Below, piece after piece: positions 1 through 55,536 of a stretch of DNA of 64,000 nt. The position numbers were made by a program, and so were the translations under genes. Source of the stretch: Candidatus Zhuqueibacterota bacterium (GTDB lineage: Bacteria > Zhuqueibacterota > Zhuqueibacteria > Residuimicrobiales > Krinioviventaceae). Below the pieces are notes generated by a model that saw only the letters and a program-made list of their open reading frames with translations, had not been told where the DNA came from and did not search any database. Each line of letters opens with the position of its first letter. The first letter of the stretch is position 1. The stretch is taken from contig JAFGJB010000153.1 in NCBI GenBank assembly GCA_016929295.1, positions 10,830-74,829 of the forward strand, read 5' to 3'.

Positions 1-423
1 GCTCGCCGCCGGACAACTCTTCCGGATACTTGCGCGATTTGTGACTGAGACCGACATCGGCCAGAGCCCGCAGCACCTTGCGCTTGATCACCTTGCCGCG
101 AACTCCCACCACTTCCAGAACAAAGGAAATATTGCGAAAGACATCGCGATCATTGAGCAATTTGAAATCCTGAAAGACGATCCCCAGTTTGCGGCGAAGA
201 TAGGGAATATCCTGCTTTGACACAAACAACGAATTATATTCGCCGACGATGATATGGCCTTCGCTCGGCCTCTCCTCTAAAAATATAGACTTGAGTACAG
301 TCGATTTGCCGGCGCCACTCGGGCCAACCAGAAATACCACCTCGCCGGGATTGACCTTGAAAGTGATCTGCTGAATGCCATCACCGGTTGGATAGGACAC
401 TTTGACGTTATGCAGTTCTAACA
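1..423 (-). CDS. ftsE: Cell division ABC-transporter ATP-binding protein FtsE, partial (C-terminus runs off window start)
   Basis: Manual reverse translation from the ATG at 423..421 gives MLELHNVKVSYPTGDGIQQITFKVNPGEVVFLVGPSGAGKSTVLK...LSGGE: Walker A, Q-loop and ABC signature LSGGE in FtsE order. Not in the ORF track because no stop lies in the window. Confidence 0.85.
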
Positions 424-22952: not shown

Positions 22953-23324
22953 CTAGATTATACCCGATATGCCCGATACTTGACTTTTATAGCACCTTTT
23001 TGCGATCATGTTTACCAGTTTGTTGAATTCACTTTGCCTTTTGTCATGCTTTGCAAGCAGGGCGCGCTTGTGTGTGATAATGACAATATGGGCAGAAAAG
23101 TGCTGCTGCAGGCTGTTTGTGCGCCACAATTCACGCGCAATCCTTTTCAGTTTGTTACGCATCGGCTTGTTTGGAGCTCTCCCTGCGGCAAAACCGATCT
23201 TAAAGTCATCTTCTTGTACAAAGAAAATGGAAAAATATTCATTCTTGACGGCATGGCCATGCTGAACAATGGAGCGAAATTCAGCGCTGTTTTTCAAAAT
23301 CGTGCTTTTGGGCAGCGTGTTCAC
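22953..23324 (-). CDS. rnpA: Ribonuclease P protein component RnpA
   Basis: 123 aa, basic; the motif KLKRIARELWR falls in the RNR-like region; sits in canonical position between rpmH and yidD. Confidence 0.85.
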   Translation of the reverse strand: MNTLPKSTILKNSAEFRSIVQHGHAVKNEYFSIFFVQEDDFKIGFAAGRAPNKPMRNKLKRIARELWRTNSLQQHFSAHIVIITHKRALLAKHDKRQSEFNKLVNMIAKRCYKSQVSGISGII

Positions 23325-23352
23325 TCAACGTTCAAGCCGGCTTCATTCGTCA

Positions 23353-23496
23353 CTGACAGTCAATTTTTTACGACCTTTGGCTCGACGGCGGCTGAGAACA
23401 GCTCTGCCGTTCTTGGTCGCCATGCGGGTTCGGAAACCATGCTTGTTAATTCTTTTTCGCCGGTGCGGTTGAAAAGTCTGTTTCATTCTTTATCTC
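23353..23496 (-). CDS. rpmH: 50S ribosomal protein L34
   Basis: Not in the ORF track because it is short. Manual translation of the minus strand from ATG 23496..23494 gives [47 protein letters not shown], a near-consensus L34. Confidence 0.9.
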
Positions 23497-23606
23497 CATC
23501 GCCTTGATAATTATCACAAGATTTATATTATAAGTATTTTAGTAATTAAAATCAAGCTCTTTTCTTTTGTTAACAAACACTTAGCACTCTCTGAACAACA
23601 CTATAT

Positions 23607-24140
23607 CTAGTATATTTCTATACGTCGCGCCCCTATAAATTGACTTGCATAGTATCTGTCCGACAACTTACTCAGAATAACACCTTTTGTTGAAGAAGCG
23701 TGGACAAAATAGCCTTTTGTCAGGTATAGTCCCATATGCGTCGGCTGGCGCCCGTGGCTGGAAAAAAAGACCAGATCACCAAAGAGCAGATCCATCTTGT
23801 AGATCTTTTTGCTTCTGGCGAATATTTCCTGGGTATTGTGGGGCAAGGTGATATTCGCCGAATTTTTATAAATGGTCACAATCAGTCCGGAACAGTCCGT
23901 GCCCTGCGACGAATCACCCCCCCATCTGTAGGGTGCACCATAAAACTTTTTGATTTCATCTTTCATCTTTTGCAAAATCTCTTCATTGAAAGAGACCTGA
24001 TGGCGCATGCCGTCGTAATACGGTACAGGCGCCAACCGGGCGCCACAGTGAAAAAGAGTCAGGGTTAGCAAAAATAACGGAAATAACAGGTGCTTTTTTT
24101 TCATTTTATGCAGTGTCATTCTTTTCGCTTGCATTTTCAT
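23607..24140 (-). CDS. NlpC/P60 (C40) family peptidoglycan endopeptidase lipoprotein
   Basis: Signal peptide/lipobox ..TLTLFHCG; catalytic Cys context GTDCSGLIV and His context THMGLYL. Confidence 0.8.
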   Translation of the reverse strand: MKMQAKRMTLHKMKKKHLLFPLFLLTLTLFHCGARLAPVPYYDGMRHQVSFNEEILQKMKDEIKKFYGAPYRWGGDSSQGTDCSGLIVTIYKNSANITLPHNTQEIFARSKKIYKMDLLFGDLVFFSSHGRQPTHMGLYLTKGYFVHASSTKGVILSKLSDRYYASQFIGARRIEIY

Positions 24141-24204
24141 TATATTGAATTAAATTGAATTATTAAAGAATTTTACTTATTATTTACTTCAATGACTGTT
24201 CTAT

Positions 24205-24747
24205 TTGCCACTTGGGTCGCCTATGTCCGGAATATATTCAACATTAAGATCGTGTTATCCCTGTTATTTGATACTGATCTCGATCGTATCAATCGTCTGC
24301 ATTTATCTCATTTCTCTTTTATACAAAAAACAGCCCAAAATATTTTGGACTATACTGATAACATCGATGGCGGTCAGCATATTCACCCTCGCCACGCAAC
24401 GGTTTTTCTTTCCCAGGTTCTTCAGACTTTTTTCTCTCATGTGCGGCAGACAACAACAGGTTGCGGAAGAATGGATCATCTATGATACTGATCCGCGCAA
24501 CGATGTCTTCATCAAGGGCAACCTGCGCTACGGCGAGTTGCGACGTCTCGATTCGGTGCTGATGCATGAAAAGAGAAACTACAACGGCATGCGTCTTGAC
24601 AGCGCCACCTTGAATGAATATGCCAAATACGATCCCCAGATAATCGATGCCTATGATCGCTGGCGTAAATGCAAGGATATGCGCCGCTCCTACCACAAGA
24701 GCATCTATCCCGATGAGCGCAGATTATACTATTATTTAAGGGACTAG
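24205..24747 (+). CDS. Hypothetical membrane protein (2 TM plus basic/aromatic C-terminal domain)
   Basis: ORF only. First gene after the minus-to-plus strand switch and followed by a clean intrinsic terminator. Start uncertain. Confidence 0.45.
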   Translation: MPLGSPMSGIYSTLRSCYPCYLILISIVSIVCIYLISLLYKKQPKIFWTILITSMAVSIFTLATQRFFFPRFFRLFSLMCGRQQQVAEEWIIYDTDPRNDVFIKGNLRYGELRRLDSVLMHEKRNYNGMRLDSATLNEYAKYDPQIIDAYDRWRKCKDMRRSYHKSIYPDERRLYYYLRD

Positions 24748-24791
24748 ACTTTCTTCACGGAACAAAAATGAACGTATAAAATATAATAGAT

Positions 24792-24817
24792 AAACCCGAA
24801 ATGACTCGGGTTTTTTC
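24792..24817 (+). terminator. Rho-independent terminator
   Basis: AAACCCGA-AATGAC-TCGGGTTTTTT: 8-bp stem, 6-nt loop, T6 tract, 45 nt after the stop at 24747. Confidence 0.65.
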
Positions 24818-24835
24818 ATTTAAGAGTGTCCTGTC

Positions 24836-25756
24836 ATGAAAATGCATTTCTTCGTCATTCTCTTGTTTGTCGCGATAGCGCCCCTGCTGCCATCCGAAAG
24901 AAAGCTGAATGCCACCTTCCTTTTCGCTTTTGGCGAAAAAGGCGAACAACCGGCACAATTCAATCGCCCCCTGGGCGTGTCGGCAGATGCCAAAGGCAAT
25001 GTTTACGTCTCGGATAGCGGCAATAACCGGCTGCAGAAATTTACGCCGCAAGGAGAGTTGATTGCATTCATCGGCGGTTTTGGCTGGGAAAAAGAGCAGT
25101 TTCAATTCCCGATAGATATATTTGTCTACAATTCACTGGATATCTTTGTCGCTGATTTTGATAACAACAGAATCGAGCGCTATGACAAGGACTTGAATTG
25201 GCTGACCAGCTACTATTCGAACGACAACTGGTCAGCAAAGATGCGCTTTCTCTTTCCCATCTCCGTTTGCGTGAGCCTGCACGGCGATTTTTTCATCGTT
25301 GATTCCGAGAATGATCGGGTCATTAAACTCAACGCTTCTTTTGAACCCGAGCTCTCCTTTGGCGATTATGATTGGGGTGCGGGTGTTCTTCAGGAAGCTT
25401 CACACATCTATGTCTCAAAGAACGATGTCATCTATGTGACGGATCCCGGGGCGCATAAAATCCTTGTCTATGATTATTACGGCAATTTTCTCTATGATGT
25501 GGGCGTCGGTGAGCTTGTCACACCCAAAGGTCTGTGCGTCGATGACCAGGAACAGATATTTGTCGCTGATGCCAGCAAAAATCAGGTCCTGACATTCGAC
25601 AAAAACGGCCGTTTGCTTTTGACAATCGGCTCTTTGAGCAGCAAGTTTGCAGGATTTAATGAACCCTCGGATGTCACCATCATTCGCGATAAACTGTATG
25701 TTGCGGATACGCAGAATCATCGAATTCAGATTTTTCAGCTTGCATGGGAAAACTAA
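24836..25756 (+). CDS. NHL-repeat (six-bladed beta-propeller) secreted protein
   Basis: Signal peptide. Repeated GVSADAKGNVYVSDSGNNRLQKF / FVADFDNNRIERY / FIVDSENDRVIKL / YVTDPGAHKILVYD / FVADASKNQVLTFD / YVADTQNHRIQIF blocks match the NHL repeat. Confidence 0.75.
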   Translation: MKMHFFVILLFVAIAPLLPSERKLNATFLFAFGEKGEQPAQFNRPLGVSADAKGNVYVSDSGNNRLQKFTPQGELIAFIGGFGWEKEQFQFPIDIFVYNSLDIFVADFDNNRIERYDKDLNWLTSYYSNDNWSAKMRFLFPISVCVSLHGDFFIVDSENDRVIKLNASFEPELSFGDYDWGAGVLQEASHIYVSKNDVIYVTDPGAHKILVYDYYGNFLYDVGVGELVTPKGLCVDDQEQIFVADASKNQVLTFDKNGRLLLTIGSLSSKFAGFNEPSDVTIIRDKLYVADTQNHRIQIFQLAWEN

Positions 25757-37821: not shown

Positions 37822-38445
37822 TCAAAACTTTTGCGCTTTATAAAATATGATCTGCAAAATGAAAAAGAGCAGCGCGCCGGCAAGCGCAATCATACTGTCC
37901 AGTTTGCTGCAAACAAGCGCGGCAAAAAATGCGCAGCTGTCGATCAGGATGACCAACAGGGCGGAATAGAAAAAAATAGAATTCGTCTTGCCGAATTTCA
38001 GATGTTTGAGAGAGTCAATAGTCCAGTTGTATGCCTCTCTATCCAGTTTATAATTTTTCATATGCGAACTGTAAAAACTCTTTATCTTGTTCATGCTCAT
38101 AGCACTCTCAAACCAGGCCACGCGCAAGCGGATCAACGTGAGCAAAAAGAGTACGCCCATGAGAAAAAGTATGACGAATGCAGCCAAGACAACATGACGA
38201 AAAAGAGAAAATTGCAGCAACTCTGACTTTTTCGCGCCCAAGGCCATCAGGCCAACCATTGCCGTCAGGTACGGGATGAAAATACTAATGACATAAAACT
38301 GCACCATTTTGTGTCTGTCTTCCATCGCCTGCGCTGCCGTCTCGCGTGCATATTCAAACTCGGCAATCAAAATGGCATTGGGATCGAGTGGTTTTGCAGC
38401 TTGTTCGCTTTGCTCAGCTAAAGGCTTGGCATTTTCCTGTGTCAT
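37822..38445 (-). CDS. Hypothetical polytopic membrane protein
   Basis: ORF with 4-5 hydrophobic helices. Convergent with the GH94 gene. The long inverted-repeat element lies upstream. Confidence 0.5.
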   Translation of the reverse strand: MTQENAKPLAEQSEQAAKPLDPNAILIAEFEYARETAAQAMEDRHKMVQFYVISIFIPYLTAMVGLMALGAKKSELLQFSLFRHVVLAAFVILFLMGVLFLLTLIRLRVAWFESAMSMNKIKSFYSSHMKNYKLDREAYNWTIDSLKHLKFGKTNSIFFYSALLVILIDSCAFFAALVCSKLDSMIALAGALLFFILQIIFYKAQKF

Positions 38446-38532
38446 GATGTCCTCTCTTCTTACTCTTTTTTAAAACTACAAAATAATGAAACAAATCGCT
38501 ATCAAATATTGAACTGTAGAAATATAACTTTT

Positions 38533-38646
38533 TTCTGCACTCACGCAAAGGCGAGCCGCAAAGGATACGCAAAGAAAAATGAAATATTTTCATTCTTTTC
38601 AAGAACTTGCATATCTTTGCGCCTGCGTCTTTGCGTGAGTGCAGAA
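38533..38646. repeat. Long inverted repeat with perfect 18-bp arms and internal CGCAAAG/CTTTGCG heptamer iterations
   Basis: TTCTGCACTCACGCAAAG (38533-38550) is the exact reverse complement of CTTTGCGTGAGTGCAGAA (38629-38646). The interior holds three direct CGCAAAG copies (38544, 38557, 38568), two CTTTGCG copies (38615, 38629) and a central AATGAAATATTTTCATT near-palindrome. Confidence 0.6.
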
Positions 38647-38844
38647 GATAATATTTTAATGTCCCAACTAAATTACCCGCCCAGAATGGATATTCTGGGC
38701 GATCTCACATAGGGGTACGTGCTTTTTTATCAGGTTCTTGATGCTTTTACTACCTGTAACTGACCTTTCACCTCGTGAAGCTATTTGCTGTTGGATTACA
38801 ACTTCATTTTTTGTAAATTTTGTGATGCACATGATGGAGAAAAG

Positions 38845-39513
38845 ATGCGACGATTTAATCTGGTCATTTTTGATGTGGATGGTACGCTGGTGGACACTGC
38901 GACGGATGTGCATATCTGCCTCAATATGGCGCTGGAAAAAATGAAGCTGCCGACGATTACCGTCGAGATGGCAAAAAAAGCGATCGGACCTGGTCCGAAA
39001 GATTTTATCAAATATATACTGGCAGATCGAATTGACCTGGCGGAAGAATTTCATCATGTATTTCGCCCGCTTTATCTGCAGCATTGTGCGGACAATGCCA
39101 TCCCTTTTGATGGCATTGTGGAACTTTTACAGGAGCTTCGCGATAGAAATATAAAGATGGCCGTCGCTACTAACAAGGCCCGTAACAGCAATAATGCTGT
39201 ACTCACAGCATTACAGCTTGATTCCTATTTCGATATCATCTTGTCGCGCGACGATGTTGAAAATTCAAAACCGTCGCCGGACATGCTGTTTAAAGCGTGC
39301 GATCAACTGAATATCCCGCCGGCTAAAGCGCTGATGCTCGGCGACACCTATAACGATATATATGCTGCAAATGCCGCCGGCATGAAAAGTTGTCTGGCGT
39401 TATGGGGATTTTCGGAGGACTATCAGGATCTCATGGCGATTTCTACCTATGCTATCGAAAATCCCCTGCAGATTCTGGATATTATCGAAAGCGACATTCT
39501 TGAAAATGCCTGA
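38845..39513 (+). CDS. HAD-superfamily hydrolase (phosphoglycolate-phosphatase-like subfamily IA)
   Basis: Start at MRRFNLVIFDVDGTLVDT (DxDGT motif I), ..VATNK.. motif II, ..MLGDTYNDIYAANAAG motif III/IV. Confidence 0.8.
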   Translation: MRRFNLVIFDVDGTLVDTATDVHICLNMALEKMKLPTITVEMAKKAIGPGPKDFIKYILADRIDLAEEFHHVFRPLYLQHCADNAIPFDGIVELLQELRDRNIKMAVATNKARNSNNAVLTALQLDSYFDIILSRDDVENSKPSPDMLFKACDQLNIPPAKALMLGDTYNDIYAANAAGMKSCLALWGFSEDYQDLMAISTYAIENPLQILDIIESDILENA

Positions 39514-42226: not shown

Positions 42227-42227
42227 A

Positions 42228-42787
42228 TTTAAAAATCACCAATAAGCATGTCGGTTTACTGATTAATTTCAATGTGTTGCAATTGAAAGACGGAGTGAAA
42301 AGGCTTGTAAACAAGTACGATGATAGTGAATGAGCATACATATTTTCATGCCTCGGCGACACTCGGCGTTCCCGGCGGTTGGGTACGCATTGTGGGAATT
42401 AACCAAATTTCACTTTACTTATCCACAGACAAATCTGGAAAAGTGGTCAAAAGCAGTGTAAAAGCTGTCGATTATGTGTTGATGAATTCGAATTTATCCA
42501 CCTTGATTCGGATTATTTTCAACAAGTGGTGATAAGAGCTTTATTATTCACCTTTATTCCACATTTCATTGTTGATATTCTGAAAAAGAATCAGCGTTGT
42601 TTTTTATAAAGTTATAATTAGTTTTTTAACATTATTACTTCTTTTCAACATATCCACAGCGTCTATTACTATAAATTATTTAAATAAATATTAATATATA
42701 TAATAATTATCTGGAACAGATTAAATTTCTTGTCGTATCCCTCATTATTATAAATATCTTTCATAACAGTTAAATTTGGAGGCTCAA
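42228..42787 (+). promoter_or_regulatory. 560-bp AT-rich intergenic region with DnaA-box-like motifs and promoter elements upstream of tldD
   Basis: Perfect TTATCCACA at 42419-42427; one-mismatch boxes TTATCCACC (42494-42502), ATATCCACA (42649-42657), TTATTCACC (42544-42552). About 100 bp nearly pure A/T at 42661-42760. TAAATTTG (42763-42770) resembles an FCB-type -7 element, followed by GGAGG and ATG 42788. Confidence 0.4.
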
Positions 42788-44331: not shown

Positions 44332-45654
44332 ATGAGTACCGAGATGAATAATTTATGTGAGTTTGTTTTGGAGACGGCTAAAAAAGCCGGCGCCGATGAC
44401 TGCCGAGTTGCATTTTCCAAAAATCGTTTTGTCGAAGTGCAATATCGCGAGCGCAAGCCGGAGACCGTGAAAGAGGCCACGACACTAGGCGTCAATGTCG
44501 ATATTTATGTGAACGGTCGATACTCGTCGCAGAGCACGGCAGATGTGCGGAAAGAGGCATTGCGGACTTTTGTCGTCAATGCCATAGAGGCGACAAAGTT
44601 GTTGGAAGAAGATCCCTACCGCAGTCTTCCAGATCCCAGCTATTACCAAGGTCGCGCTGATATCGATCTGCAATTGTGCGATTCCGGCTATGAAACAATT
44701 ACACCCGAGCTGAGGCACAGCATGGCCAAAAAGCTTGAGGGCGCCTGTCGTGAAGCTGGCGGCGATGTGGTCATTTCTGTCACGTCGCAAGTTTACGATG
44801 AATTTCAGCAAGAAAAAATACTGACGAGCAATGGTTTTGCCGGTGAAACGCAAGCGACGGTCTGTTTCGCATACGCCGAGATGACGGCGCAAGATGAAGG
44901 TGATCGCCGTCCACAGGGCTATCACTATGTCGTGGATCGATCGTTGAGTAAATTTCCCGACTGTCAGCAAATCGGCAAAGAGGCCGCTGCCAGGACTATG
45001 GAATTGATGGGTGGAAAGAAAATACCGACAGAGACGTTGCCCATCATCATCGAGAATCGCGTTGCGGGTAATGTCGTTGATGGATTTGTCTCGGCGATGA
45101 GCGGCTGGGCGCTGCAGCAAAAACGCTCTTTTCTCATCGATAAAAAAGGGGAACGTGTTGGCAGCGATGTATTCACGCTCGTAGATGATCCTCACATTAT
45201 CGCAGGACTCGGCAGTCGCTTGTACGATGGCGATGGTTTTGCCACGCGCAAGCGCACCATGATTGAAAACGGCATTTTGAATGAATATTACATCGACTGG
45301 TACCGCAGCCGCAAGCTCGGGGTGAATCCAACGACCGGCGGAACATTCAACTTGATTCTGCCGCCGGGCAGCCGCACGGTTCAGGAGATCATGAAAGATC
45401 TGGGACGAGGAATTCTGATCAACGGTTTCATCGGCGGCAACTCCAACTCCAATACCGGCGATTTCTCCATCGGCATCACCGGCACCCTGTTCGAAAACGG
45501 CGAGCGGACCCAGGCGGTGGCCGAGATGAATATCGCCGATAATCACCTCAAATTCTGGCAAAAGCTGGCCGAGACGGCGAATGATCCGTGGACCTATAGC
45601 AGCTGGAGGATGCCGAGTTTGGTGTTTGGGGATGTGGTGGTGTCGGGAGTGTGA
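44332..45654 (+). CDS. pmbA: PmbA/TldE-family protein (partner of TldD)
   Basis: Start at MSTEMNNLCEFVLETAKKAGADD, 11 bp after the tldD stop. TldD/PmbA family C-terminal pattern ..GDFSIGITGTLFENGE..; lacks HExxxH, as PmbA/TldE does. Confidence 0.8.
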   Translation: MSTEMNNLCEFVLETAKKAGADDCRVAFSKNRFVEVQYRERKPETVKEATTLGVNVDIYVNGRYSSQSTADVRKEALRTFVVNAIEATKLLEEDPYRSLPDPSYYQGRADIDLQLCDSGYETITPELRHSMAKKLEGACREAGGDVVISVTSQVYDEFQQEKILTSNGFAGETQATVCFAYAEMTAQDEGDRRPQGYHYVVDRSLSKFPDCQQIGKEAAARTMELMGGKKIPTETLPIIIENRVAGNVVDGFVSAMSGWALQQKRSFLIDKKGERVGSDVFTLVDDPHIIAGLGSRLYDGDGFATRKRTMIENGILNEYYIDWYRSRKLGVNPTTGGTFNLILPPGSRTVQEIMKDLGRGILINGFIGGNSNSNTGDFSIGITGTLFENGERTQAVAEMNIADNHLKFWQKLAETANDPWTYSSWRMPSLVFGDVVVSGV

Positions 45655-45695
45655 GAAAGATTTACGTTCACATTGACATTATTTGATAGTCTGGA

Positions 45696-45780
45696 AAAAC
45701 CAGACCGAGAATTTTCACGAATGAAGGACTTTAGATTTATGTAACAGCGTCACTATGCGCGTTGTTCTCGGTCTGGTTTT
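45696..45780. repeat. 16-bp perfect inverted repeat with 53-nt spacer at the left edge of the low-GC island
   Basis: AAAACCAGACCGAGAA (45696-45711) and TTCTCGGTCTGGTTTT (45765-45780) are exact reverse complements. The right arm is followed by GTCAAGTTTTATATTT. Lies 41 bp after the pmbA stop. Confidence 0.5.
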
Positions 45781-46221
45781 GTCAAGTTTTATATTTGCAT
45801 TTTCTGCAAAACCGCACGTTGACTATTATCCCTAAAAAAAGCAGAGTTGGCAAAGATTTAATATGTTCTATAAACAATCTATAATAGGCTATTAATAGTC
45901 CCTCAGAAACTTGGCCGCTTTCGAAATATTCTGCTTTTAAAGGTTGTTCTCCATATAAAATAATGCCGGGGAAATTAAATCGAACCAAAAATCTACTATG
46001 TGACAATACTTGATATGCCGTCCCGGGAATAGTTAACGATCTTTATATTTTGCACCGACTGTTCTGTAGAATAAGTTTCGCTTCTCATAACTGATATTTT
46101 TCAGGAAATGCATGTAAGCGCCCCCAAGCCATACTGTGAAGGAAAAGACGAAATTGATTGGCTTGAAAAATGGGGCACGAGGTGCGATCCGAAAACAGAT
46201 GCTACTCTATTGGAGAGAGAA

Positions 46222-49200
46222 ATGAAAAAATTATTCTGTATAATTTTGTGCATCCTTGCTGTATCTACGCTTTTCGCGCAAAACAAGATTGATCCTACCC
46301 TCAAAAAAACCATCGAAAACAATACACTGCGGAAAGTCGATGCCGCAGATGTTGAAGTGCTCATAAAAATAACGAATAGCGACCTGTCCGCGTTGGAAAA
46401 AAGTGGCGCCAAAATAAAATACGTCATAGATGATGAATACGTCCGCGCTGCCGTACCCATTTTTAAAATTACTGAATTAGCAAATAATAAAGCCGTTTGC
46501 TACATAACCGGTTCTCGGCAAATGCAGCCACATAACGACATTGCCGCTTGTGTTTGCGGTGGTATCGTGGCAGCACAAGCCGGTTACACCGGAGAAGATG
46601 TTCTCATTGGGATTGTTGACACAGGACTTGATTTCAAGCATCCTGGATTCCTCAATGCAGATGGCAGTACCAGAGTTTTATACTTCTGGGACCAGACCGA
46701 TTTAGGATCAGACCAGCCAACGAACCAATTTTCCTATGGTTCAGAATGGACGAGCGCCGATATTGACGGCGGAGCCTGCACGTCAAAGGACACCGAAGGT
46801 CATGGCACGCACGTTGCCGGTTGTGCGGCGCAGCATTTTTATCATGACGCAGATGAGCAATATAACAGCGGCACGCTTTCGAACTTGCTCATTGTCAAGA
46901 CTGATTTTAATGGCCTGCACATTTTGGACGGTATTGTTCGAATTTTTCAAAAGGCGGAACAACTTGGCAAACCGGCTATTGTGAATCTAAGCTTAGGAAG
47001 TCGATGGGGTCCCCATGATGGTACTGATCCATTAACGGCTGCAACGGACCTGCTTACAGGACCCGGAAAAATTATTGTGCGATCGGCCGGAAATGATGGT
47101 GCTCGCAAATTTCATAACTATGCCATAGCTGATGCCGATGGCAATAGTATGGTGTTTAAGCTGTCGACAACTGTTGAAAATCTCGTAATTGGATGCTGGT
47201 ATGATGGGTCATCGAAAGTCGAAGCTGAAATTTTCTTGCCAGGTAACTTGAGTACGGGAAAAATTGCTACAGGTAAAGAGGCTACATTTAATATTGGCAA
47301 TACCAGCCGCCTGGAAATCTTAAACGCGCCATATGGCGTTGAGAACTATAATGGCGATAATAATTTAATGATTTCCTTTGTTGGCAAAATTCCAGCGGGC
47401 GAATATAGAATAGTTCTTTTCTCCAATGACAGGCCAGCAGTGTATGCTTGGTTGTATGACTGCTCGGTCGATACAAGTTTTGCCTTTGAAAATTCAAGCG
47501 ACCATTTTAGTCTGGCCAACGAAGCCTGTGGACGGAATGTCATTGTCATTGGTGCTGCAGTCACACGCAAAGAATTTTATGCTGTGGACGAACATGGCAA
47601 AGCGGCAACATGGGTAACACACGAAGAGGAAGAAACAGTAGCGTCGTTCAGCTCTGCTGGGCCAACGCGTGATGGCCGCCACAAGCCGGATGTGGTTATG
47701 CCAGGATCTTATATTACCACTGCCTTTTCCACTGATGCTATTTCGTCAGGCCCAGTAGGATCCTTGAGCATGATGCGCGAAGGTCCCATATATATCAATC
47801 CTTCTACAGTGAATACATTTGCCTATGTCCAGGGCACCAGCAGTTCCAGTCCGATATTTGTCAGTACGGCTGCGAAAACTTTTGCCTTTTTTAAAAAGAA
47901 ATTTGGACATTTCCCGGGTCCGACAGATATAATTGATCAAATCATAAAATATGCTGCAAAACCTGTATTCCAGTTGAAGGACGATTGTCAAAAACCAGTC
48001 GCAGGGCTCTCGCCCGTCTGGGATGAAAAAGCCGGATGGGGATATCTGGATTTACGCGCGCTTTTAAAAGAAGATATCCTCATTGTCACATGCGAGCAAA
48101 CTCAAGCAGATCAACTTGAGGTTCAATTTAGTAATCAGCAGGGCGTCGTCGAGAATCTCAATTCATATGTTATCACCGGCGCTTCGGAATCTCGTGTAGT
48201 GGAACTGCTACGACAGGGAGAAAGAGTCACGCTCACCTTGAATACGCCTTTAACTCCCGGCTTTAGAGATACTTTGAAAATCGACGCGGGCTTGGATCAA
48301 CGCCTCATTCCCATAAAAAAAATCGGCACCATTGTCGAATTGACCGATTTAACGACGAGAATGACATGGGATGCTGCACACTCTCCCTATTATGTGCATG
48401 GACAAATTGTCGTATACGAAAATGCATCGCTGACACTTTTAGCGGGCACGCAAATAGAGTTTATGCCCAATCCAAATGATGGATCTTCCGGGATAGTCGT
48501 TTTAGGTGAGCTGAAGGCATGTGGAGAAGAAAACTCGCCTGTTACAATACTGCCAGCAGCCCAAGCGGACTATTGGGATGGTATTTACATTGATCGAAAA
48601 GGGATGGCAAATCTAACCTGTAGTGAAATTGGCTACGCAATAGATGCAATAATGTGTTGGGGAGGAGATCTGGAAATCCACCACTCGATGATTGCGCATG
48701 CAAAAGGATTCGGTGTTTTCCTTGATAGTTGTGCTGCTAAAATCGATCACCTTCTATTGTGGGATACAAACGGCACTTCTGATAGCGGTAGCCTATGGAT
48801 TCAAAATACAATTGCTGACAACAATTTGTCTCACTTGACGCTTTATCAAAATATGCCGAATGGTATAGTTTCTCTAGGGCAACATCCGATAATTATTGAC
48901 TCTAGTATCATTGTTGAGAGCTCCATCTATGCGGAACCATATTATGGCAGCAAAATAATCATTAATGAATCGGATATATATAATTGCCAAATTTTTGGAA
49001 CTGTAAATGAGAGCGAATGCATTAGTGCTGATCCACGCTTTGAAAATCCGGATTCAGGTGATTTTAGACTGCGAGCTGATTCTCCGTGTCCAACATGGGG
49101 TGCCATAATTGACGACATAAATGATAAAAATATACAAGCTTCACCGTCTGCTTTTCGCATACATCAGAACTATCCTAATCCATTCAATGGCCACACCATC

Positions 49201-49425
49201 ATAAATTTTGATATGCCAAGGAAGGTTCATATCAATTTGGCCATATATAATATTCGAGGTGAACTTGTCAAGACATTGGCAGATAAAGAGTACAATACCG
49301 GCTATTACACACTTTCGTGGAATGGTATTGGCGACTCTGGGCAAATAATGTCTAGCGGAATATATTTTTGCCGTCTATCTGGAGACAGTTTTTCGCACAG
49401 TATTCGAATGCTGTACTTAAAATAG
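46222..49425 (+). CDS. S8 (subtilisin-like) serine peptidase with beta-helix region and T9SS C-terminal sorting domain
   Basis: Start at MKKLFCIILCILAVSTLFAQ (signal peptide; RBS GGAGAGAGAA). Catalytic triad contexts IGIVDTGLD, HGTHVAGCAA, GTSSSSPIFV. Right-handed beta-helix-like repeats in the middle. C-terminal ..NYPNPFNGHTIINF..GIYFCRL..MLYLK is a T9SS CTD. Confidence 0.9.
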   Translation: MKKLFCIILCILAVSTLFAQNKIDPTLKKTIENNTLRKVDAADVEVLIKITNSDLSALEKSGAKIKYVIDDEYVRAAVPIFKITELANNKAVCYITGSRQMQPHNDIAACVCGGIVAAQAGYTGEDVLIGIVDTGLDFKHPGFLNADGSTRVLYFWDQTDLGSDQPTNQFSYGSEWTSADIDGGACTSKDTEGHGTHVAGCAAQHFYHDADEQYNSGTLSNLLIVKTDFNGLHILDGIVRIFQKAEQLGKPAIVNLSLGSRWGPHDGTDPLTAATDLLTGPGKIIVRSAGNDGARKFHNYAIADADGNSMVFKLSTTVENLVIGCWYDGSSKVEAEIFLPGNLSTGKIATGKEATFNIGNTSRLEILNAPYGVENYNGDNNLMISFVGKIPAGEYRIVLFSNDRPAVYAWLYDCSVDTSFAFENSSDHFSLANEACGRNVIVIGAAVTRKEFYAVDEHGKAATWVTHEEEETVASFSSAGPTRDGRHKPDVVMPGSYITTAFSTDAISSGPVGSLSMMREGPIYINPSTVNTFAYVQGTSSSSPIFVSTAAKTFAFFKKKFGHFPGPTDIIDQIIKYAAKPVFQLKDDCQKPVAGLSPVWDEKAGWGYLDLRALLKEDILIVTCEQTQADQLEVQFSNQQGVVENLNSYVITGASESRVVELLRQGERVTLTLNTPLTPGFRDTLKIDAGLDQRLIPIKKIGTIVELTDLTTRMTWDAAHSPYYVHGQIVVYENASLTLLAGTQIEFMPNPNDGSSGIVVLGELKACGEENSPVTILPAAQADYWDGIYIDRKGMANLTCSEIGYAIDAIMCWGGDLEIHHSMIAHAKGFGVFLDSCAAKIDHLLLWDTNGTSDSGSLWIQNTIADNNLSHLTLYQNMPNGIVSLGQHPIIIDSSIIVESSIYAEPYYGSKIIINESDIYNCQIFGTVNESECISADPRFENPDSGDFRLRADSPCPTWGAIIDDINDKNIQASPSAFRIHQNYPNPFNGHTIINFDMPRKVHINLAIYNIRGELVKTLADKEYNTGYYTLSWNGIGDSGQIMSSGIYFCRLSGDSFSHSIRMLYLK

Positions 49426-49432
49426 TAGCCTC

Positions 49433-52405
49433 ATGAATGCCGACGTACTACAAAATTACAATCAAAACGATCGTGAGGTGAACATATTTATTTCCTCGAC
49501 ATTTCTTGACATGAACAATGATCGTGATTTTTTAAAGAACAAAGCGTTCTTGCAGCTCGCGGAAATATGTGAAAATAGGGGTGTGATCCTTACAGTCGTC
49601 GATTTGCGCTGGGGTGTTAATACTGATGAGATCGATAGTGAGAACGAAACCGAAAAACTCGAAAAAAAGGTGCTTGATGTTTGCTTTGATAGAATTGACC
49701 GATGTAATTATTTTGTCGGCATTCTTGGGGCGAGATATGGCTATATACCGAGGCATCTTTCAAGTCATATTATCGAACTGTTTGATGAAAAGTCGTCACC
49801 TATTGGACGTTCCGTAACCGAACTTGAGATAATTTATGCGACCCGGAAAAAAGGCTTGAACCAGGATAATATGCTCTTTTGCCTGCGCGATGATGATTAT
49901 TCTAAAAGTTTAGGTGCAGATTTTATCGAACATAATAACGAAAATCGTCAAAAACTAAAAGAACTATGTGATTACGTCAAGAGATATCAACCTCATTTTA
50001 TCGAAGGCTACAAGAATGTTCATGTGCTCAACAAAGGTATATTTGAATTTTTTAAAAATGTTCTAGACAGGCGATTCCCAGCGCCGGCAGCTCATGATCC
50101 GAATGAACTTTATTCATTAACCCACTACTTTTACGCCCTGCGGCAGCGACGATACTATGAAAAAAATGATCTTCTTCACTCAGAATTGAATCAATTCATA
50201 GAAAAGAAAGATCAAACTCTCCTGGTACTTGAAGGGGCGATCGGTTCTGGTAAATCATCTTTGCTAGCAAACTGGGGACTGTCATTGCTCGAAAAGAACA
50301 CAGCTAATGTCATTCTTCACTTTGTTGGGATAAGTAGTCAAAGTACAACATGGCAATCCACTCTAAGACACATGATATATGAACTTTGTTTTGATAACGG
50401 ATTGCCCTTTCTAATGCCTGAGAATGAGCTTGATCTACCCATGCTGCTGTATCAAACATTGCAGACGGTTAGCAAAAAACGCCGTGTGGTCATCGTTATT
50501 GACGGAATAAATAAATTCGAATTTGAAAATGGGACAACAGATTTATTTTGGCTGCCAGGAAATCTGCCCCAGAACGTGTCAATTATCATTTCAACTACAG
50601 CTCCCATCGAACAATTTTATAATCATGACGCTTGTAAATTCAAACTTGGGCATGAAGCTTTCTATGCCAGGGGGCAACAGCGTGACGAATTTATAAAACA
50701 ATACTTGGACAAAATACAATTTCGCGAGCTAAGCAAACAGCAAATTTCAAAGATTAGCAATCATCACCTTGCGTCAACGCCAAAGTTTTTGGTGACGATT
50801 CTGGAGAGTCTTTCATTATTTGGACTCGGAAAACGTGACAGTCCAGAATCAACCGAGAAAAACGACGATTATAAATATTATCTAGATAGCGAACTAGAAT
50901 ATTACATATCATCTAATAGTTATGTTGAATTATACGAGCGGATTTTTGACAAAATTGAGAAATTCAGTCAAGAAAGTAAGGAAATTTTGCGAGATGGCCT
51001 TCGATTTATATTTTACTCAAAAGACGGGCTTGCTGAAGAAGAGGTACTCCATTTAATCAGCAGAACGACCAAAAGTGAAATAATGTATATTGACTGGCAG
51101 CCTGTCTACTTGTCGATAGCAAACCTATTGGTAAATAATTCGGGCTTGCTATCGATCAGAGAAGAAGCAATCCGCCAGGCCGTGCAGAAAAAGTATGCGA
51201 TTGGCAAAGATTCTGAATTAGCATATAGGCAGGAAATACTGAATTATTTTGTGAGAAATAGAAATTCAACTCGTAAACTACAAGAATACGCGTGGCAGCT
51301 ATCACAATTGGGCTACAATGAAAAGTTGTTTAGGTATTTAAAACAGAGATCAGTATTTCATGATTTTTGGAGATTAGATCCTATTTCATTAAAAAAATAT
51401 TTTGTTTTTCTTATTAACAGTAAAGCAATTTATTTAAAAGATATCGCCGAGCATTTTGCAAAATTAGCCAAATCGAACAGTAAGAATGCAAAATTCCTTG
51501 AATCATTGTCTATTTTTTTATTTGATTTGGGTTTCTATGAGCATGCAAAAGAAATACAAGAAGACTTGATCAATCAGTTCAAAACGAAGGACAAAAATAT
51601 CTATCAAAGAACGTTGAGATTACTGGCTAATAGCGAGCTAAGACTTGGCAACTGGAGCAATGCTTATAGATACTATAAAAAGCAAGCATCAATTGTTACG
51701 CCTGCCGTATGTTTGGATGATTTTAATTCATTGCAAAAAAGCTATGGAAATCAGGCTATCGTTCTCGTAAAAATGGGTAAGAGTAAAAGGGCTCTTGAGC
51801 GCCTTGAAAAACAAGAAAATATTTGCAAAGACTATCATTTCTACGATGGTTTGATGAAGTGCTACGGCACATATGCGAATGCTTTTATTCAATTGCGAAA
51901 GTTAAAGGAAGCCTTGGAGTATCAGCATGAACAGGAGATATTAGCCAAGCGTATGAACGATCTCAAGGATTTGCATATCTCGCTTGGCAACAAGGCTGTT
52001 ATTTTGCAGACTTTGGGCAAATTTGAAGAAGCATTTCGTACTCATGAGCAAGAACGAGAAATATGCCTTAAAATTGGTGACCGCTACGGGCTTCAAGCTT
52101 CTTATGGCAATCAGGGCCATATTTTTTTAAAAAGAGGGATGTATATTGAAGCACTATCTCTTTATCTTCGACAAGAAGAAATTTGCATGGACATATCTGA
52201 AATGTGGGGCCTGCAAAATGCTTATTTTAATATAGGCGTTGCTTATACAAGATTAAAAAATCCACTCAAAGCAGCAGACTTTATAAGCAAGTGCATAAAA
52301 ATATGTGTTGAATTGCACTATAAAAAAGACTTACGCAAAGCTAAAATTCTACTATTTGCTTTAAAATTACTTAAACTTGGATTCAAGTCAGCCAAAAAAG
52401 CCTAA
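49433..52405 (+). CDS. NLR-like STAND NTPase: DUF4062-like N-terminal domain, NACHT-type P-loop NTPase, C-terminal TPR array
   Basis: N-term VNIFISSTFLDMNNDRDFL..VDLRWGV..GARYGYIP matches DUF4062 conserved blocks. Walker A LLVLEGAIGSGKSSLLANW (about nt 50231-50254); Walker B RRVVIVIDGINKFE (about nt 50486-50509). C-terminal about 300 aa of 34-aa TPR/KLC-like repeats. No signal peptide or TM. Start 7 bp after the S8 stop. Confidence 0.85.
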   Translation: MNADVLQNYNQNDREVNIFISSTFLDMNNDRDFLKNKAFLQLAEICENRGVILTVVDLRWGVNTDEIDSENETEKLEKKVLDVCFDRIDRCNYFVGILGARYGYIPRHLSSHIIELFDEKSSPIGRSVTELEIIYATRKKGLNQDNMLFCLRDDDYSKSLGADFIEHNNENRQKLKELCDYVKRYQPHFIEGYKNVHVLNKGIFEFFKNVLDRRFPAPAAHDPNELYSLTHYFYALRQRRYYEKNDLLHSELNQFIEKKDQTLLVLEGAIGSGKSSLLANWGLSLLEKNTANVILHFVGISSQSTTWQSTLRHMIYELCFDNGLPFLMPENELDLPMLLYQTLQTVSKKRRVVIVIDGINKFEFENGTTDLFWLPGNLPQNVSIIISTTAPIEQFYNHDACKFKLGHEAFYARGQQRDEFIKQYLDKIQFRELSKQQISKISNHHLASTPKFLVTILESLSLFGLGKRDSPESTEKNDDYKYYLDSELEYYISSNSYVELYERIFDKIEKFSQESKEILRDGLRFIFYSKDGLAEEEVLHLISRTTKSEIMYIDWQPVYLSIANLLVNNSGLLSIREEAIRQAVQKKYAIGKDSELAYRQEILNYFVRNRNSTRKLQEYAWQLSQLGYNEKLFRYLKQRSVFHDFWRLDPISLKKYFVFLINSKAIYLKDIAEHFAKLAKSNSKNAKFLESLSIFLFDLGFYEHAKEIQEDLINQFKTKDKNIYQRTLRLLANSELRLGNWSNAYRYYKKQASIVTPAVCLDDFNSLQKSYGNQAIVLVKMGKSKRALERLEKQENICKDYHFYDGLMKCYGTYANAFIQLRKLKEALEYQHEQEILAKRMNDLKDLHISLGNKAVILQTLGKFEEAFRTHEQEREICLKIGDRYGLQASYGNQGHIFLKRGMYIEALSLYLRQEEICMDISEMWGLQNAYFNIGVAYTRLKNPLKAADFISKCIKICVELHYKKDLRKAKILLFALKLLKLGFKSAKKA

Positions 52406-52426
52406 AAACAAAAAAGGAGAACTAAA

Positions 52427-52789
52427 ATGAAAGTGCTATGCAAAATTTTGATTGTAGCCTTTATCATTCTCTCAATTTCGGGATGCAAGGAATACACAAA
52501 ATTTAAAGTCAGTATTATCAACGACAGTTCATCTGAAATTACAGAAATTGAGCTGGGGATGATTGGCGTAGAAAAGACCGTTTCAGTTAATAGCCTGGCG
52601 GTTGGAGCAAGTACAAAGGTTTTTGTATTTTTATTGAAAAAGCTAGAGGAAGGCGTACCAGTACCAATTAGCTATGGTGATTATAGAGGTGGCTATAGTC
52701 AAAAAGGTGAAAAAAAACCCATATTTATTACCACACCTAATAAAAAAATTGAAATCAAAATAAATGATGATTCCTATTCCCCGATCTAG
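52427..52789 (+). CDS. Small lipoprotein (120 aa), third gene of island operon
   Basis: Lipobox ..FIILSISGC. RBS AAGGAGAAC 6 nt upstream. 21 bp after the NLR gene stop. Low GC like the NLR gene. Confidence 0.55.
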   Translation: MKVLCKILIVAFIILSISGCKEYTKFKVSIINDSSSEITEIELGMIGVEKTVSVNSLAVGASTKVFVFLLKKLEEGVPVPISYGDYRGGYSQKGEKKPIFITTPNKKIEIKINDDSYSPI

Positions 52790-55314
52790 TCAACAAGCAC
52801 AACCTTTAGCTGTCGGACTCTCTCGCCCATCTTCAGCCGCACTAAATAGACCCCGCTCGCCACAGCCTTATCATGCTCATTCAATCCATTCCATACAACG
52901 GAATGCTGCCCCGCGGCTGTCCTCCCCTCAAGCAGAATCCTGACGCGCCGGCCGCACACATCAAATATACTCAAGCGCACATCTTGCTCTTTCGGGACAT
53001 AAAACTCTATCCTCGTCGCGGCGTTGAACGGATTCGGATAGGCTTTTTTCATAACAAAACTATCCGATACCGCCCTTTGAACAACTTTGTTCACAATTTC
53101 GAAAAACGCTTTTATCGAGACATCACTATGGAGTGTCATGGATATTTGCGATTCTTGTTCAGCAATTCCCTCCCAGCCGACGAACCTGAACCCTTCATCG
53201 GGGAGCGCGGCGAGCTGAATGGGGACATCGCGATAGTAGATGCCACTCCACTCTTTTTCTATGGTCAATGAGTTGATCTGCAGCCGCCCGACGCCGCGGG
53301 GCTGCACATCTGCATGCACATCAGCTAAACCAGCGAGATTGAATTCATCTATAACGTGATCATGCAGGTAATCGCGACGATTGGCGAGAAAATTTTCGAC
53401 GTAACTAACATTCCGACGCCACTGCGTTTTGCTGCCGCCCCAGCGCGACAGATGCGCGCCAATTTCAGGATCGAGCTGCGCCGTCAACTTGCCCAGTTTC
53501 GCCAGGGTGACCTCCTCGCTGAAAAAAGAATTCATGAAATCGGCCAACTTGTTGATGAACATACAGGTGAAATTTTCATTTTCCAGTATCTTGCGAAAGA
53601 GAAAAGTGGACTCGGGCGGATTGGGCCAGTCCGGTCCGTCCTCCTCGCGGTAATAGGCGATGGTGTTGTCCATGTAGGCATCCGGCGCAAAGTGAAAATT
53701 GGGCACGAACAGGCGCATGGCGAAGGAATGATCAGTGTCATATAACAGCCAGCGATAACGCGATCCTGGATCATGCGAACGCCAGAATTTGCAGTTGTGG
53801 CCAGGACCGTCATGGTTGGCGAAAAAGATCTGGACAGCCATATAGGTGAGATAGTTGTCGACGTCCATCTGCGTCTTAACGTAATCGGCATGGGCGTCAT
53901 CCTGCAAATCATGGTCGAGGAGATAGTCGATGAGCGAGTTGTAGTGCTCGGCGCTGCCTTCGACGACCAGCGGATAGAGGGTGTGATAATCATCCAAAAT
54001 GTCCACCTCATCCGGATCGACGCCATGATGGGACGCGAGATAATCTTCATTCAGCTTTTCGCGGATCTCATAGATGCCCCAATAATCGCCATTCAGGTAA
54101 AGGTGACAGGGACGGTAAAGTTGATTATCAATATCCACATCCCGATCATCGAGCAGGAGGGCCGTCAAACCATCGCGAAACTGCACGCCACCTTCATTGT
54201 GCGTGTTATCGCTGCCGCCATTGCGCAGTAAAAATGATTTAAAGGTCGTCACGGAATAACCGGGGAAAAGAGCGTACTCCAGTTCGTCCGCACCATAGCC
54301 GCTACGCATGAAAATGGCAAACGATTTTTGCGGCAGCGTGCGCGTTGTCTTGCCGAACATCTTGATGCCCGCATTGACGCTCAAGCCGCGACCATCGGGC
54401 TCATACAGCTCGAGGTGCACCGGCCGCTCCCAGTCTTCCCAATAATTGGCCGGCGGCCCAATGGGATTGCTGGGATAGCCGCCCATGGCCGTGCCATTGC
54501 CGACGACATAGATGCCAATGTCGTCATCAAAAAGGTTGTCCGGATGCGTCGATATCGAGACCAGCGGGATGCCGCTCGTCACATCGACAAAATAGGTATA
54601 AGTGACCACAGCGCCGGCCAGTTTGCCCGTTTCGAAACAACGCGCTTTCAAGACGGTCGTCCGATTGATGGTGATGGGAGAAAGATAAGAGTGAGAGTTG
54701 ATATTCGGATCCGCGCCGTTCGTCGTGTAGCGGATCAGGCTGCCGGCGGTAGACGAGGAGAGGGCGACTGCGAGGGGCTGGCTGTGCAATCCGCCAGGTG
54801 GCGAGATCAACGGTTCGGGCGCATAGCCGGCAGCCGGCGCGGCGTCGTTGGCCGCTCGCGGCGTCGGCCGGCTGTAAAAAGCCCATTGACCCGGATCAGC
54901 AGGCGTGCGTCCGTAGGAATGATCCACAGCAAGAGGGGGGACGGTGAGGTCATCGAGGATCCTGCCCGACGCGTCGGAGAGCAGAATGCGTTCACCCCTG
55001 GATTTGATCTTAAAGTTGGTGTGCAACGAGTTCGGCGTGCGGCGATTTTTGTCGGATGCAAACACGACGAGGAAAGCATTCGTGGCAAGAGAGATGTTGG
55101 GAAAAGTCCATTTGTGCGGTTCTTCGGCATCATCTGACAGTCCATAACCGTTCAGATTGATGGGTGAACCCGGATTATAGAGCTCGATCCAGTCGGGATA
55201 GTCATCATCCTCATCTGCGAGGATGGAGGCATTCAATGACATCACCTCGTTGATGAGCGGAGCTTGAGAAAAGCAGAGTGCAATCAATGAAATTGCCAGC
55301 ATAAAGATTTTCAT
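52786..55314 (-). CDS. CotH-family (atypical kinase) protein with N-terminal lamin-tail domain and T9SS C-terminal sorting domain
   Basis: Start taken at ATG 55314 (MKIFMLAISLIALCFS signal peptide; the track ORF begins 6 nt earlier at TTG). LTD-like segment INEVMSLNAS..DWIELYNPG. CotH core ..YLNGDYWGIYEIREKLNEDYL... C-terminal ..KKAYPNPFNAATRIEF..GVYLVRLKMG..KVVLVD is a T9SS CTD. Confidence 0.85.
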   Translation of the reverse strand: MKIFMLAISLIALCFSQAPLINEVMSLNASILADEDDDYPDWIELYNPGSPINLNGYGLSDDAEEPHKWTFPNISLATNAFLVVFASDKNRRTPNSLHTNFKIKSRGERILLSDASGRILDDLTVPPLAVDHSYGRTPADPGQWAFYSRPTPRAANDAAPAAGYAPEPLISPPGGLHSQPLAVALSSSTAGSLIRYTTNGADPNINSHSYLSPITINRTTVLKARCFETGKLAGAVVTYTYFVDVTSGIPLVSISTHPDNLFDDDIGIYVVGNGTAMGGYPSNPIGPPANYWEDWERPVHLELYEPDGRGLSVNAGIKMFGKTTRTLPQKSFAIFMRSGYGADELEYALFPGYSVTTFKSFLLRNGGSDNTHNEGGVQFRDGLTALLLDDRDVDIDNQLYRPCHLYLNGDYWGIYEIREKLNEDYLASHHGVDPDEVDILDDYHTLYPLVVEGSAEHYNSLIDYLLDHDLQDDAHADYVKTQMDVDNYLTYMAVQIFFANHDGPGHNCKFWRSHDPGSRYRWLLYDTDHSFAMRLFVPNFHFAPDAYMDNTIAYYREEDGPDWPNPPESTFLFRKILENENFTCMFINKLADFMNSFFSEEVTLAKLGKLTAQLDPEIGAHLSRWGGSKTQWRRNVSYVENFLANRRDYLHDHVIDEFNLAGLADVHADVQPRGVGRLQINSLTIEKEWSGIYYRDVPIQLAALPDEGFRFVGWEGIAEQESQISMTLHSDVSIKAFFEIVNKVVQRAVSDSFVMKKAYPNPFNAATRIEFYVPKEQDVRLSIFDVCGRRVRILLEGRTAAGQHSVVWNGLNEHDKAVASGVYLVRLKMGERVRQLKVVLVD

Positions 55315-55323
55315 TTGCAAAAC

Positions 55324-55536
55324 TCACATTTTCACATCGATCCATACCAGACGATGGTCGGATGCCTTCTCTGCCAGTTTATAGCTCTGCGGGTCGTCGT
55401 CCTCAAACGGCCAGAACACACCGCCGCCGACGATTTTGAGATCGACGCTAGGCAGAACATAATCGACGCGCACTTGCCGGCCACTGACATTTGCCATAGT
55501 TGCTCCCATGATGAACCAAAATACTGTTGTTTTCAC
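55324..55536 (-). pseudogene. Endonuclease/exonuclease/phosphatase (EEP) family C-terminal gene remnant
   Basis: The 70-aa ORF ends ..QVRVDYVLPSVDLKIVGGGVF...ASDHRLVWIDVKM, matching the last two conserved blocks of EEP domains (RIDYI..S..L and SDHxPV). The N-terminal catalytic 200 or more aa are absent, and upstream is non-coding. Confidence 0.45.

Follow-up and report, generated by a model that had tools for sequence, protein, structure and literature searches.

A low-GC islet between pmbA and a CotH gene of an uncultured KSB1 bacterium carries a predicted exported subtilase beside an NLR-like protein

A segment of low GC content separates pmbA from a convergent CotH gene in a 64,000-nt stretch of DNA (hereafter the window), which is part of a contig of 100 kb in a metagenome-assembled genome (MAG) assigned to candidate division KSB1. 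This segment of ~7.0 kb (roughly 45781–52785) is probably an acquired operon of three genes, the conserved core of which consists of a protease, the S8 subtilase encoded by gene A, and an NLR-like STAND protein encoded by gene B; a small lipoprotein-like gene C follows (Table 1). We consider the island to be real and acquired and the reading of gene B as a defence gene to be reasonable, and the interesting content of the locus is the conserved module of a protease with an NLR-like or CHAT protein. An initial annotation of the same DNA had not recognised this module of S8 protease and NLR-like gene. The observations concern the composition and borders of the segment, its absence in relatives, the architecture, motifs and fold of its proteins, and the adjacency of their genes.

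The subtilase, the NLR-like protein and their conserved pairing

The pmbA–CotH gap holds exactly three genes, all co-directional on the plus strand. The gene A product matches Peptidase_S8 (E = 1.2e-24), has a catalytic triad (D133, H194, S540) that is invariant throughout its clade, and bears a type-A sorting domain of the type IX secretion system (T9SS; TIGR04183, 29.3 bits at a cut-off of 23). Its first residues, MKKLFCIILCILAVSTLFA-QNK, have the hydrophobic pattern of a signal peptide as read from the sequence; the N-terminus is prodomain-like and the catalytic domain Csp-like, with the Csp germination proteases as the closest solved structures. The region of residues ~620–960 is rich in beta-strands and beta-helix-like, and homologues have Pfam Beta_helix/NosD matches there. 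From the AlphaFold2 model only the C-terminal strand pattern was used, as the confidence score (pLDDT) reached 80–90 in the C-terminal half only and the full-length value of 64.5 was too low for a fold search. The protein is therefore predicted to be an exported, T9SS-sorted S8 subtilase. The same sorting domain on the CotH, DUF3160 and M1 peptidase proteins of the window indicates that the host uses this export route. Weak PADLOC matches were obtained with the ‘subtilase’ model (E = 2.5e-11) and with IetS (E = 0.008). The number of the ‘subtilase’ model adjoins that of ‘TIR-NLR’, and the two were considered as a known protease–NLR system; this was rejected, as TIR-NLR is described as a single gene and no literature link between the two models was present in the papers searchable.

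The gene B product has the architecture effector–STAND NTPase–repeat sensor with intact Walker A and B motifs. Its N-terminal DUF4062 match (PF13271) scores 51.3 bits at a cut-off of 24.7 and covers the full profile over residues 18–136, and the domain has the three-layer fold of the TIR/nucleoside-deoxyribosyltransferase-like type. According to three preprints of 2026, DUF4062, renamed NIR, is a TIR-like, Glu-dependent NADase that depletes NAD+ in abortive-infection defence, and the NIR defence proteins include the NIR-STAND-TPR (tetratricopeptide repeat) protein Avs2 and other NLR-like fusions (bioRxiv 10.64898/2026.09.04.749371; 10.64898/2026.05.01.722283). In alignments of 42–46 homologues, the motif S127-x-T129-E130-L-E132 at the start of a helix is invariant, and the catalytic glutamate would be E130 or E132, as assigned by the motif rather than by alignment to E108 of PsAvs2 or E97 of KpSwz. 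Homologue alignments also showed G268, G271, G273 and K274 of Walker A to be invariant and D357 to be nearly so. No signal peptide was recognised on gene B. By analogy with the NIR proteins, gene B is predicted to hydrolyse NAD+ and to defend against phage.

The NCBI start of gene B, ATG 49511 (964 aa), would cut off the N-terminal beta-strand of the NIR domain and, with it, the invariant residues F19, S21, S22, F24 and D26. Since these residues would be dropped, ATG 49433 is preferred as the likely start; it lies 7 nt past the gene A stop and fits all homologues. No full-length match to gene B was present among 72,556 plasmids, the best one being a DUF4062 protein that covered 37% of the query.

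Gene C encodes a signal peptide followed by a cysteine, as in lipoproteins, and its ATG is preceded by a strong AGGAG ribosome-binding site. It had no match in Pfam, NCBIfam or PADLOC. The family comprises 38 representative clusters, with 58% as the best identity and one member at 53% from Cloacimonadota. The gene is absent beside the S8-STAND pairs of L081, L082 and L084 (see below) and lies outside the conserved module.

A homologue search with gene A delimited an S8 clade of 12 clusters, followed by a gap in scores from 1e-169 to 1e-84. The genomic context was examined for all the other clusters of the clade, and 10 lineages were informative; L176 (P0129), a short contig on which the gene looks frameshifted, was left out. 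In all of these lineages (10/10), the subtilase gene adjoins a co-oriented gene for a large cytoplasmic protein that combines TPRs with a death-type effector; this partner is NIR-NACHT-TPR in three lineages and TPR-CHAT in seven. The NIR-NACHT-TPR gene is located immediately downstream of the subtilase in the window, in two related low-GC KSB1 genomes (L081 and L082) and in one Calditrichaeota MAG (L083 and L084), where the pair is split over two contigs, with S8 at the end of the first and STAND at the start of the second; these contigs overlap by 125 nt with 122/125 identity. These NIR-type lineages are the window's own and its closest in the S8 clade. The TPR-CHAT gene is located immediately upstream in L085, L088, L170, L172, L173, L174 and L175; its product lacks a signal peptide and bears the cysteine motif SACETG, which is invariant. 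The six complete copies are 949–1084 aa long, and the seventh is truncated at a contig edge.

The two genes of each pair lie on the same strand with gaps of 7–114 nt, although the subtilases of different lineages are only 33–55% identical to each other. Moreover, the pairwise identities of S8 and TPR-CHAT proteins are correlated (r = 0.68, exact Mantel p = 1/5040). In comparison, a rough background set of 80 loci with other S8 peptidases (non-members of the clade, obtained by a metagenome scan on generic subtilase motifs) had no NIR-STAND neighbours and a single weak CHAT-like match nearby. A specific sensor common to both partner types was also considered and rejected, the profile–profile match being only of the generic TPR kind (probability 98.9%, 18% identity). 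A prior description of the S8-NLR/CHAT pairing was not found in the searchable literature, which is an incomplete set.

Several further genes were seen beside the pairs in other lineages. In L173 (110–1408) and L174 (823–2145), the start of the TPR-CHAT gene is overlapped by a gene for a protein of 432 aa and 440 aa, respectively; the two proteins are 28.5% identical, had no match in Pfam or PADLOC and may represent a third component of the CHAT-type modules. In one CHAT-type lineage (L170 6196–7227, L171 5488–6519), a TIR-DUF4384 gene lies downstream of the subtilase, so that two death-type effectors flank the protease there. In L082 (1–1621) and L081 (1–222), the subtilase gene is preceded, at a distance of 22 nt, by a gene that encodes TrkA_N and RyR domains and may belong to the same operon; no trace of this gene was found in the window.

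Probable acquisition at a variable site between pmbA and CotH

In windows of 150 bp, the GC content is 0.57 before and 0.36 after position 45655, and 0.33 before and 0.55 after position 52786; both steps coincide with the stop codons of the flanking genes, pmbA (MBN1560105.1) and CotH (MBN1560109.1, an exact match of 842 aa). The GC content at third codon positions (GC3) is 0.398, 0.357 and 0.331 in genes A, B and C (z = -4.1, -5.0 and -5.7, respectively) relative to the 35 other genes of the window, with a mean of 0.570, a standard deviation (sd) of 0.042 and a minimum of 0.466. Codon frequencies of the island genes correlate with the rest of the window at 0.40–0.62 and those of other long genes at 0.86–0.95. 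The GC steps, GC3 and codon usage thus agree on the ~7 kb low-GC island which the initial annotation had placed between pmbA and the convergent CotH gene, and the sliding-window GC and codon analysis that it proposed found a non-uniform composition (z = -4 to -6). Its statement that low GC starts right after the pmbA stop is correct as to the step at 45655, but the first stretch is native, containing a hairpin in common with the relative L001.

Three other parts of the window deviate in composition. The GC content is moderately lower (0.42–0.43) at 23000–25000 and 38000–39000, where the GC3 of the genes (0.47–0.57) is still inside the host range, and these parts are for this reason not comparable to the island. 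About 550 bp at 42227–42775, between tldD and an SxtJ-like open reading frame (ORF) 3' of the carbamoyltransferase gene, are AT-rich (GC ~0.38) with no convincing ORF.

Relatives were found by a scan with one genome per species, which returned six KSB1 genomes with tldD-pmbA (L001–L006). Their PmbA proteins are 73–85% identical to that of the window, L001 being the closest (85%), and CotH is 59–60% identical in L001, L004 and L006. Genes A, B and C are present downstream of pmbA in none of the six; the initial annotation had named their syntenic presence in all relatives as a finding that would overturn its proposal, and this was not seen (0/6). Homology between the DNA of the window and L001 stops at the pmbA stop (45656) and restarts at the CotH stop (52790). 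The alignment with relatives, suggested earlier as a search for an empty site, confirmed that the island genes are missing but revealed other cargo instead of a clean empty site. The interval is 1.2 kb long in L001, with a frameshifted ORF pair and then CotH; it contains abgT and then CotH in L004, and abgT, a cation/proton antiporter gene, a TspO-like gene and then CotH in L006, while L003 has a T9SS-sorted protein and an endonuclease/exonuclease/phosphatase gene and no CotH. The composition of abgT in L004 and L006 is like that of the host. The ORF pair of L001 (4749–5691, minus strand) has a low GC3 of 0.39–0.42 against 0.59–0.67 in the flanks and looks, by eye, like an AAA_14/DUF4143-type ATPase gene; the low GC3 marks it as a second, independent foreign insert at this site. 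With different cargo in each relative, the pmbA–CotH gap is a variable, recurrently remodelled site which, in this sub-lineage, has received foreign DNA on at least two occasions.

Beyond CotH, between its start and the DUF3160 gene, the window keeps the last 52 codons of an endonuclease/exonuclease/phosphatase gene (55327–55482, minus strand), 63% identical to the intact gene of L003 (12648–13808), the bulk of which is deleted in the window. This remnant suggests that the wider stretch is rearrangement-prone too.

Both an atypical composition and absence at the syntenic site were therefore observed, as expected for horizontal acquisition. The earlier suggestion of a horizontally acquired defence islet is borne out insofar as the segment is compositionally foreign, absent in 6/6 relatives and endowed with the defence-type gene B; a defence neighbourhood is what it lacks. 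The flanking genes have the Pfam domains GH94, HAD, carbamoyltransferase, SxtJ, TldD/PmbA, CotH, DUF3160, YfhO, histidine kinase and epimerase; encoding metabolic enzymes and secreted hydrolases, they do not make up a defence island.

The three genes might instead be ancestral and lost in the sampled relatives, their composition reflecting gene-specific constraints, and the possession of an S8-STAND pair by the distant KSB1 genomes L081 and L082 would agree with this. Those pairs, however, stand in another genomic context and are only 32–40% identical to the pair of the window. The GC3 of all three island genes is 4–6 sd low, the closest relative L001 has a different low-GC insert at the site, and abgT at the site in both L004 and L006 suggests that its ancestral content was different. 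We regard ancestry with loss as very improbable. In L081 and L082 (GC 0.39–0.41) the GC3 of the pair (0.39–0.40) is like that of its neighbours, which makes low-GC relatives a plausible type of donor.

A foreign piece of 7 kb joined into the KSB1 contig by misassembly or misbinning is the least probable explanation. It would be favoured by the finding of the island proteins on one NCBI contig only and by the MAG origin of the sequence, which is to that extent a point against an acquired operon. The junctions, on the other hand, are at gene ends, with the stop codon of gene C overlapping that of CotH, and the island is internal to the 100-kb contig with syntenic flanks on either side. Furthermore, both the pmbA protein and the lipoprotein have exact matches in an independent Logan assembly, and the T9SS tail of the subtilase is of the type found on the host's own genes.

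The 16-bp inverted repeat, which had been taken for a feature of the left border, is real, occurs once in the window and has no exact copy in 80 related loci. As RNA, the hairpin folds with -33.8 kcal/mol (z = -3.9 against shuffled controls). In L001, which has no island, an equivalent hairpin stands 3' of pmbA (4668–4717, AAGACCGCAAA / TTTGCGGTCTT, z = -3.5); the two hairpins have in common the core AGACCG/CGGTCT and the loop start AATTTTCAC, and two pairs show compensatory changes (A-U to C-G; G-C to A-U). Other relatives have ordinary terminator hairpins downstream of pmbA. With an equivalent in the island-less L001, the hairpin is not the island border, and an element end is ruled out for the repeat by this conservation and by its single occurrence in the window. 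It is a conserved 3' element of pmbA, older than the insertion, and is probably a terminator.

As the hairpin up to 45780 is common to the island-less relative, the true left junction lies to the right of it, somewhere in ~45781 to 46221. This leader has no similarity to any relative retrieved and contains no gene remnant; a sigma-70-like site at 45858–45885 agrees with the consensus at 10/12 positions (a consensus match only), and no Rfam family reached the gathering score in the 567-nt leader. Searches of the junctions by tblastn and blastn with the genes of the relatives and with those flanking the pairs of L081–L083 gave no sign of earlier cargo or of a donor context. On the right, the 4-bp tail-to-tail overlap with CotH reported before is the palindrome CTAG, which provides a TAG stop on each strand.

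The initial annotation had recognised no integrase, transposase, tRNA or direct repeats, and domain scans, a tRNA search and a repeat search were all null as well. The three island genes have no integrase, transposase or recombinase domains, and the 64-kb window contains no tRNA. The proposed search of the borders for short direct repeats revealed nothing above chance: no flanking direct repeats, target-site duplication or attachment (att) sites were found, and the longest word common to the junction zones (8 nt) did not exceed the length expected from shuffled sequence. Terminal inverted repeats are likewise absent, the sole inverted repeat being located in the left flank. The segment is thus not a self-mobile integrative element or a transposon. 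As no mobility signature of any sort was present, the operon most likely arrived by recombination, either via the conserved flanks or illegitimate, into the gap between convergent core genes. The donor was probably a less GC-rich member of the wider group (KSB1 or Calditrichota, for example), in which the composition of the gene pair is that of its host.

Table 1. Features of the islet and its flanks (nucleotide positions in the window; residues for the domains of gene B)
Feature	Position	Strand	Remarks
pmbA (TldD/PmbA family), conserved left flank	44332–45654	+	all three PmbA_TldD Pfam domains matched
Hairpin, 16-bp perfect inverted repeat	45696–45711 / 45765–45780	+	53-nt structured loop, then U-rich tract
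AT-rich non-coding leader, GC ~0.35	45781–46221	+	left junction inside; promoter-like sites
Gene A, predicted exported S8 subtilase, 1067 aa	46222–49425	+
Gene B, NLR-like STAND protein, 990 aa	49433–52405	+
Gene B, NIR/DUF4062 TIR-like NADase domain (predicted)	residues ~14–215		PF13271 match
Gene B, NACHT NTPase	residues ~250–420		Walker A GAIGSGKS
Gene B, TPR array	residues ~690–965		TPR_12
Gene C, lipoprotein-like, 120 aa	52427–52789	+
Right junction, palindrome CTAG	52786–52789	.	TAG stops of gene C (+) and CotH (-)
CotH-family T9SS-sorted protein, conserved right flank, 842 aa	52786–55314	-	CotH E = 8.5e-45

Possible function of the pair and alternatives

By homology with the NIR and NLR-like proteins, the TPR array of gene B would bind a trigger, most likely a phage protein, whereupon the NACHT NTPase would power oligomerisation. 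This would switch on the NIR NADase and deplete NAD+, and the infected cell would arrest or die ahead of phage release. The subtilase would take part in the same process and could be either an extracellular arm of the system or an export substrate that is monitored (guarded). A functional link between genes A and B is favoured by their conserved, co-evolving adjacency and by the interchangeable executioner domain, and we hold it to be roughly evenly balanced. Tentatively, the subtilase and its TPR neighbour might make up an undescribed two-component conflict or cell-death system, in which an exported protease is coupled to a cytoplasmic sensor-executioner. In such a system the executioner could be interchangeable, either a NIR NADase on NACHT-TPR or CHAT on TPR. 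A guard logic is possible, with the TPR array keeping watch over protease precursor that is unexported or uncleaved; if infection blocked export, NAD+ depletion or proteolysis would follow.

The subtilase might also be an ordinary nutrient-scavenging protease and gene B a self-sufficient defence gene, the two co-travelling as accessory genes. The host has many T9SS-sorted hydrolases (CotH, DUF3160 and M1 peptidase in the window), and single-gene NIR-Avs2, Vulcan and TIR-NLR suffice for defence. Such a coincidence is difficult to reconcile with a pairing that recurs in 10/10 lineages at 33–55% subtilase identity and in 0–1 of the 80 background loci. The partner type is swapped, yet every partner is large and carries both TPRs and a death-type effector; the same-strand gaps are short (7–114 nt), and the divergence of subtilase and partner is correlated. 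We therefore consider coincidental co-travel unlikely, although it deserves serious attention.

A number of points weigh against the proposed acquired operon with a coupled protease and NLR-like defence protein. The subtilase is exported, whereas gene B needs ATP and NAD+, and with this difference in compartment a direct interaction between the two proteins is not obvious. Moreover, NIR-Avs2 and TIR-NLR act as single genes (bioRxiv 10.64898/2026.09.04.749371; PMC9122126); these partner-free homologues, together with the difference in compartment, are the main argument for coincidence. The family placement of gene B is weak, its NACHT domain scoring 27.0 bits at a Pfam cut-off of 26.7. None of the PADLOC Avs1-5/bNACHT models matched it, the matches obtained being either marginal (mad8) or to a generic TPR model (3.4e-06), and in the absence of a specific model we call it NLR-like with a NIR effector rather than naming an Avs clade. 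Its predicted activity, trigger and role in phage defence rest on homology. As judged by Pfam domains, the ten flanking genes include no known defence genes, and the viral contigs of IMG/VR hold only one partial relative of gene B. The closest matches are 42% (subtilase) and 34% (STAND) identical, so that the donor itself is unsampled, and the adjacency tally covers 10 lineages, counted from the side of the subtilase.

Gene B could also be a MalT/AfsR-like regulator of the expression or secretion of the protease instead of an immune effector. STAND-TPR regulators exist, weak matches to the TPR regions of TPR_MalT and AfsR were obtained, and the gene shares an operon with the protease. It has, however, no DNA-binding or other output domain, and its N-terminus is a TIR-like NADase fold with an invariant Glu motif. 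The partner in the sister clade is a caspase-like CHAT protease with the invariant SACETG cysteine and not a transcriptional output. Regulation by gene B is accordingly a highly unlikely explanation.

Proteases are known from other conflict systems. IetAS and the gasdermin-associated proteases combine a subtilase or another protease with an ATPase or sensor, and these proteases are generally cytoplasmic, targeting an intracellular effector. Gene A differs from them by its signal peptide and T9SS tail, and no gasdermin or IetA homologue was found at the locus.

Among the NIR proteins, gene B differs from PsAvs2 and other NIR-STAND-repeat proteins (Le Mouellic et al., bioRxiv 10.64898/2026.09.04.749371) in having a NACHT-like NTPase and no PADLOC Avs match. 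It is located in an operon with an exported subtilase, neither alone nor in a defence island, and its host is an uncultured KSB1 bacterium. The TIR-NLR of P4 satellites, a single-gene system validated as anti-phage, resembles gene B in its NADase-type N-terminus, STAND NTPase and TPRs, but has a canonical TIR in place of DUF4062, lacks a partner protease and is found in a mobile satellite hotspot (Rousset et al., 2022; PMC9122126). Swarozyc and Evangelion (bioRxiv 10.64898/2026.05.01.722283; 10.64898/2026.06.25.731849) share with gene B the DUF4062 effector family and, presumably, Glu-dependent NAD+ hydrolysis. In contrast to gene B they lack both a STAND NTPase and a TPR array, and a different auxiliary domain activates them (the phage portal in the case of KpSwz). 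The TPR-CHAT partner of the S8 clade is comparable to Csx29 of type III-E CRISPR (Craspase; PMC10028731), which also combines TPR and CHAT with an intact catalytic Cys motif; it differs in having no CRISPR context, its neighbour being an exported subtilase and not Cas7-11/Csx30.

Implications

NIR/DUF4062 NADases were tied to immunity only in 2026, and the NLR-like NIR proteins have been described as single-gene sensors (bioRxiv 10.64898/2026.09.04.749371). The NIR domain also occurs in the human proteins TEP1, NWD1 and NWD2. If the pairing is functional, an exported, conserved operon partner would be a new design for bacterial NLR-like systems, a point strengthened by the pairing of the same protease clade with caspase-like TPR-CHAT proteins, and would offer a concrete means of learning what TPR sensors of this kind recognise. 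If the pairing is incidental, the finding shrinks to an ordinary acquired islet. The locus exemplifies defence-type cargo that, unaccompanied by mobility genes, has entered a variable site flanked by core genes, which bears on the spread of defence genes in uncultured phyla.

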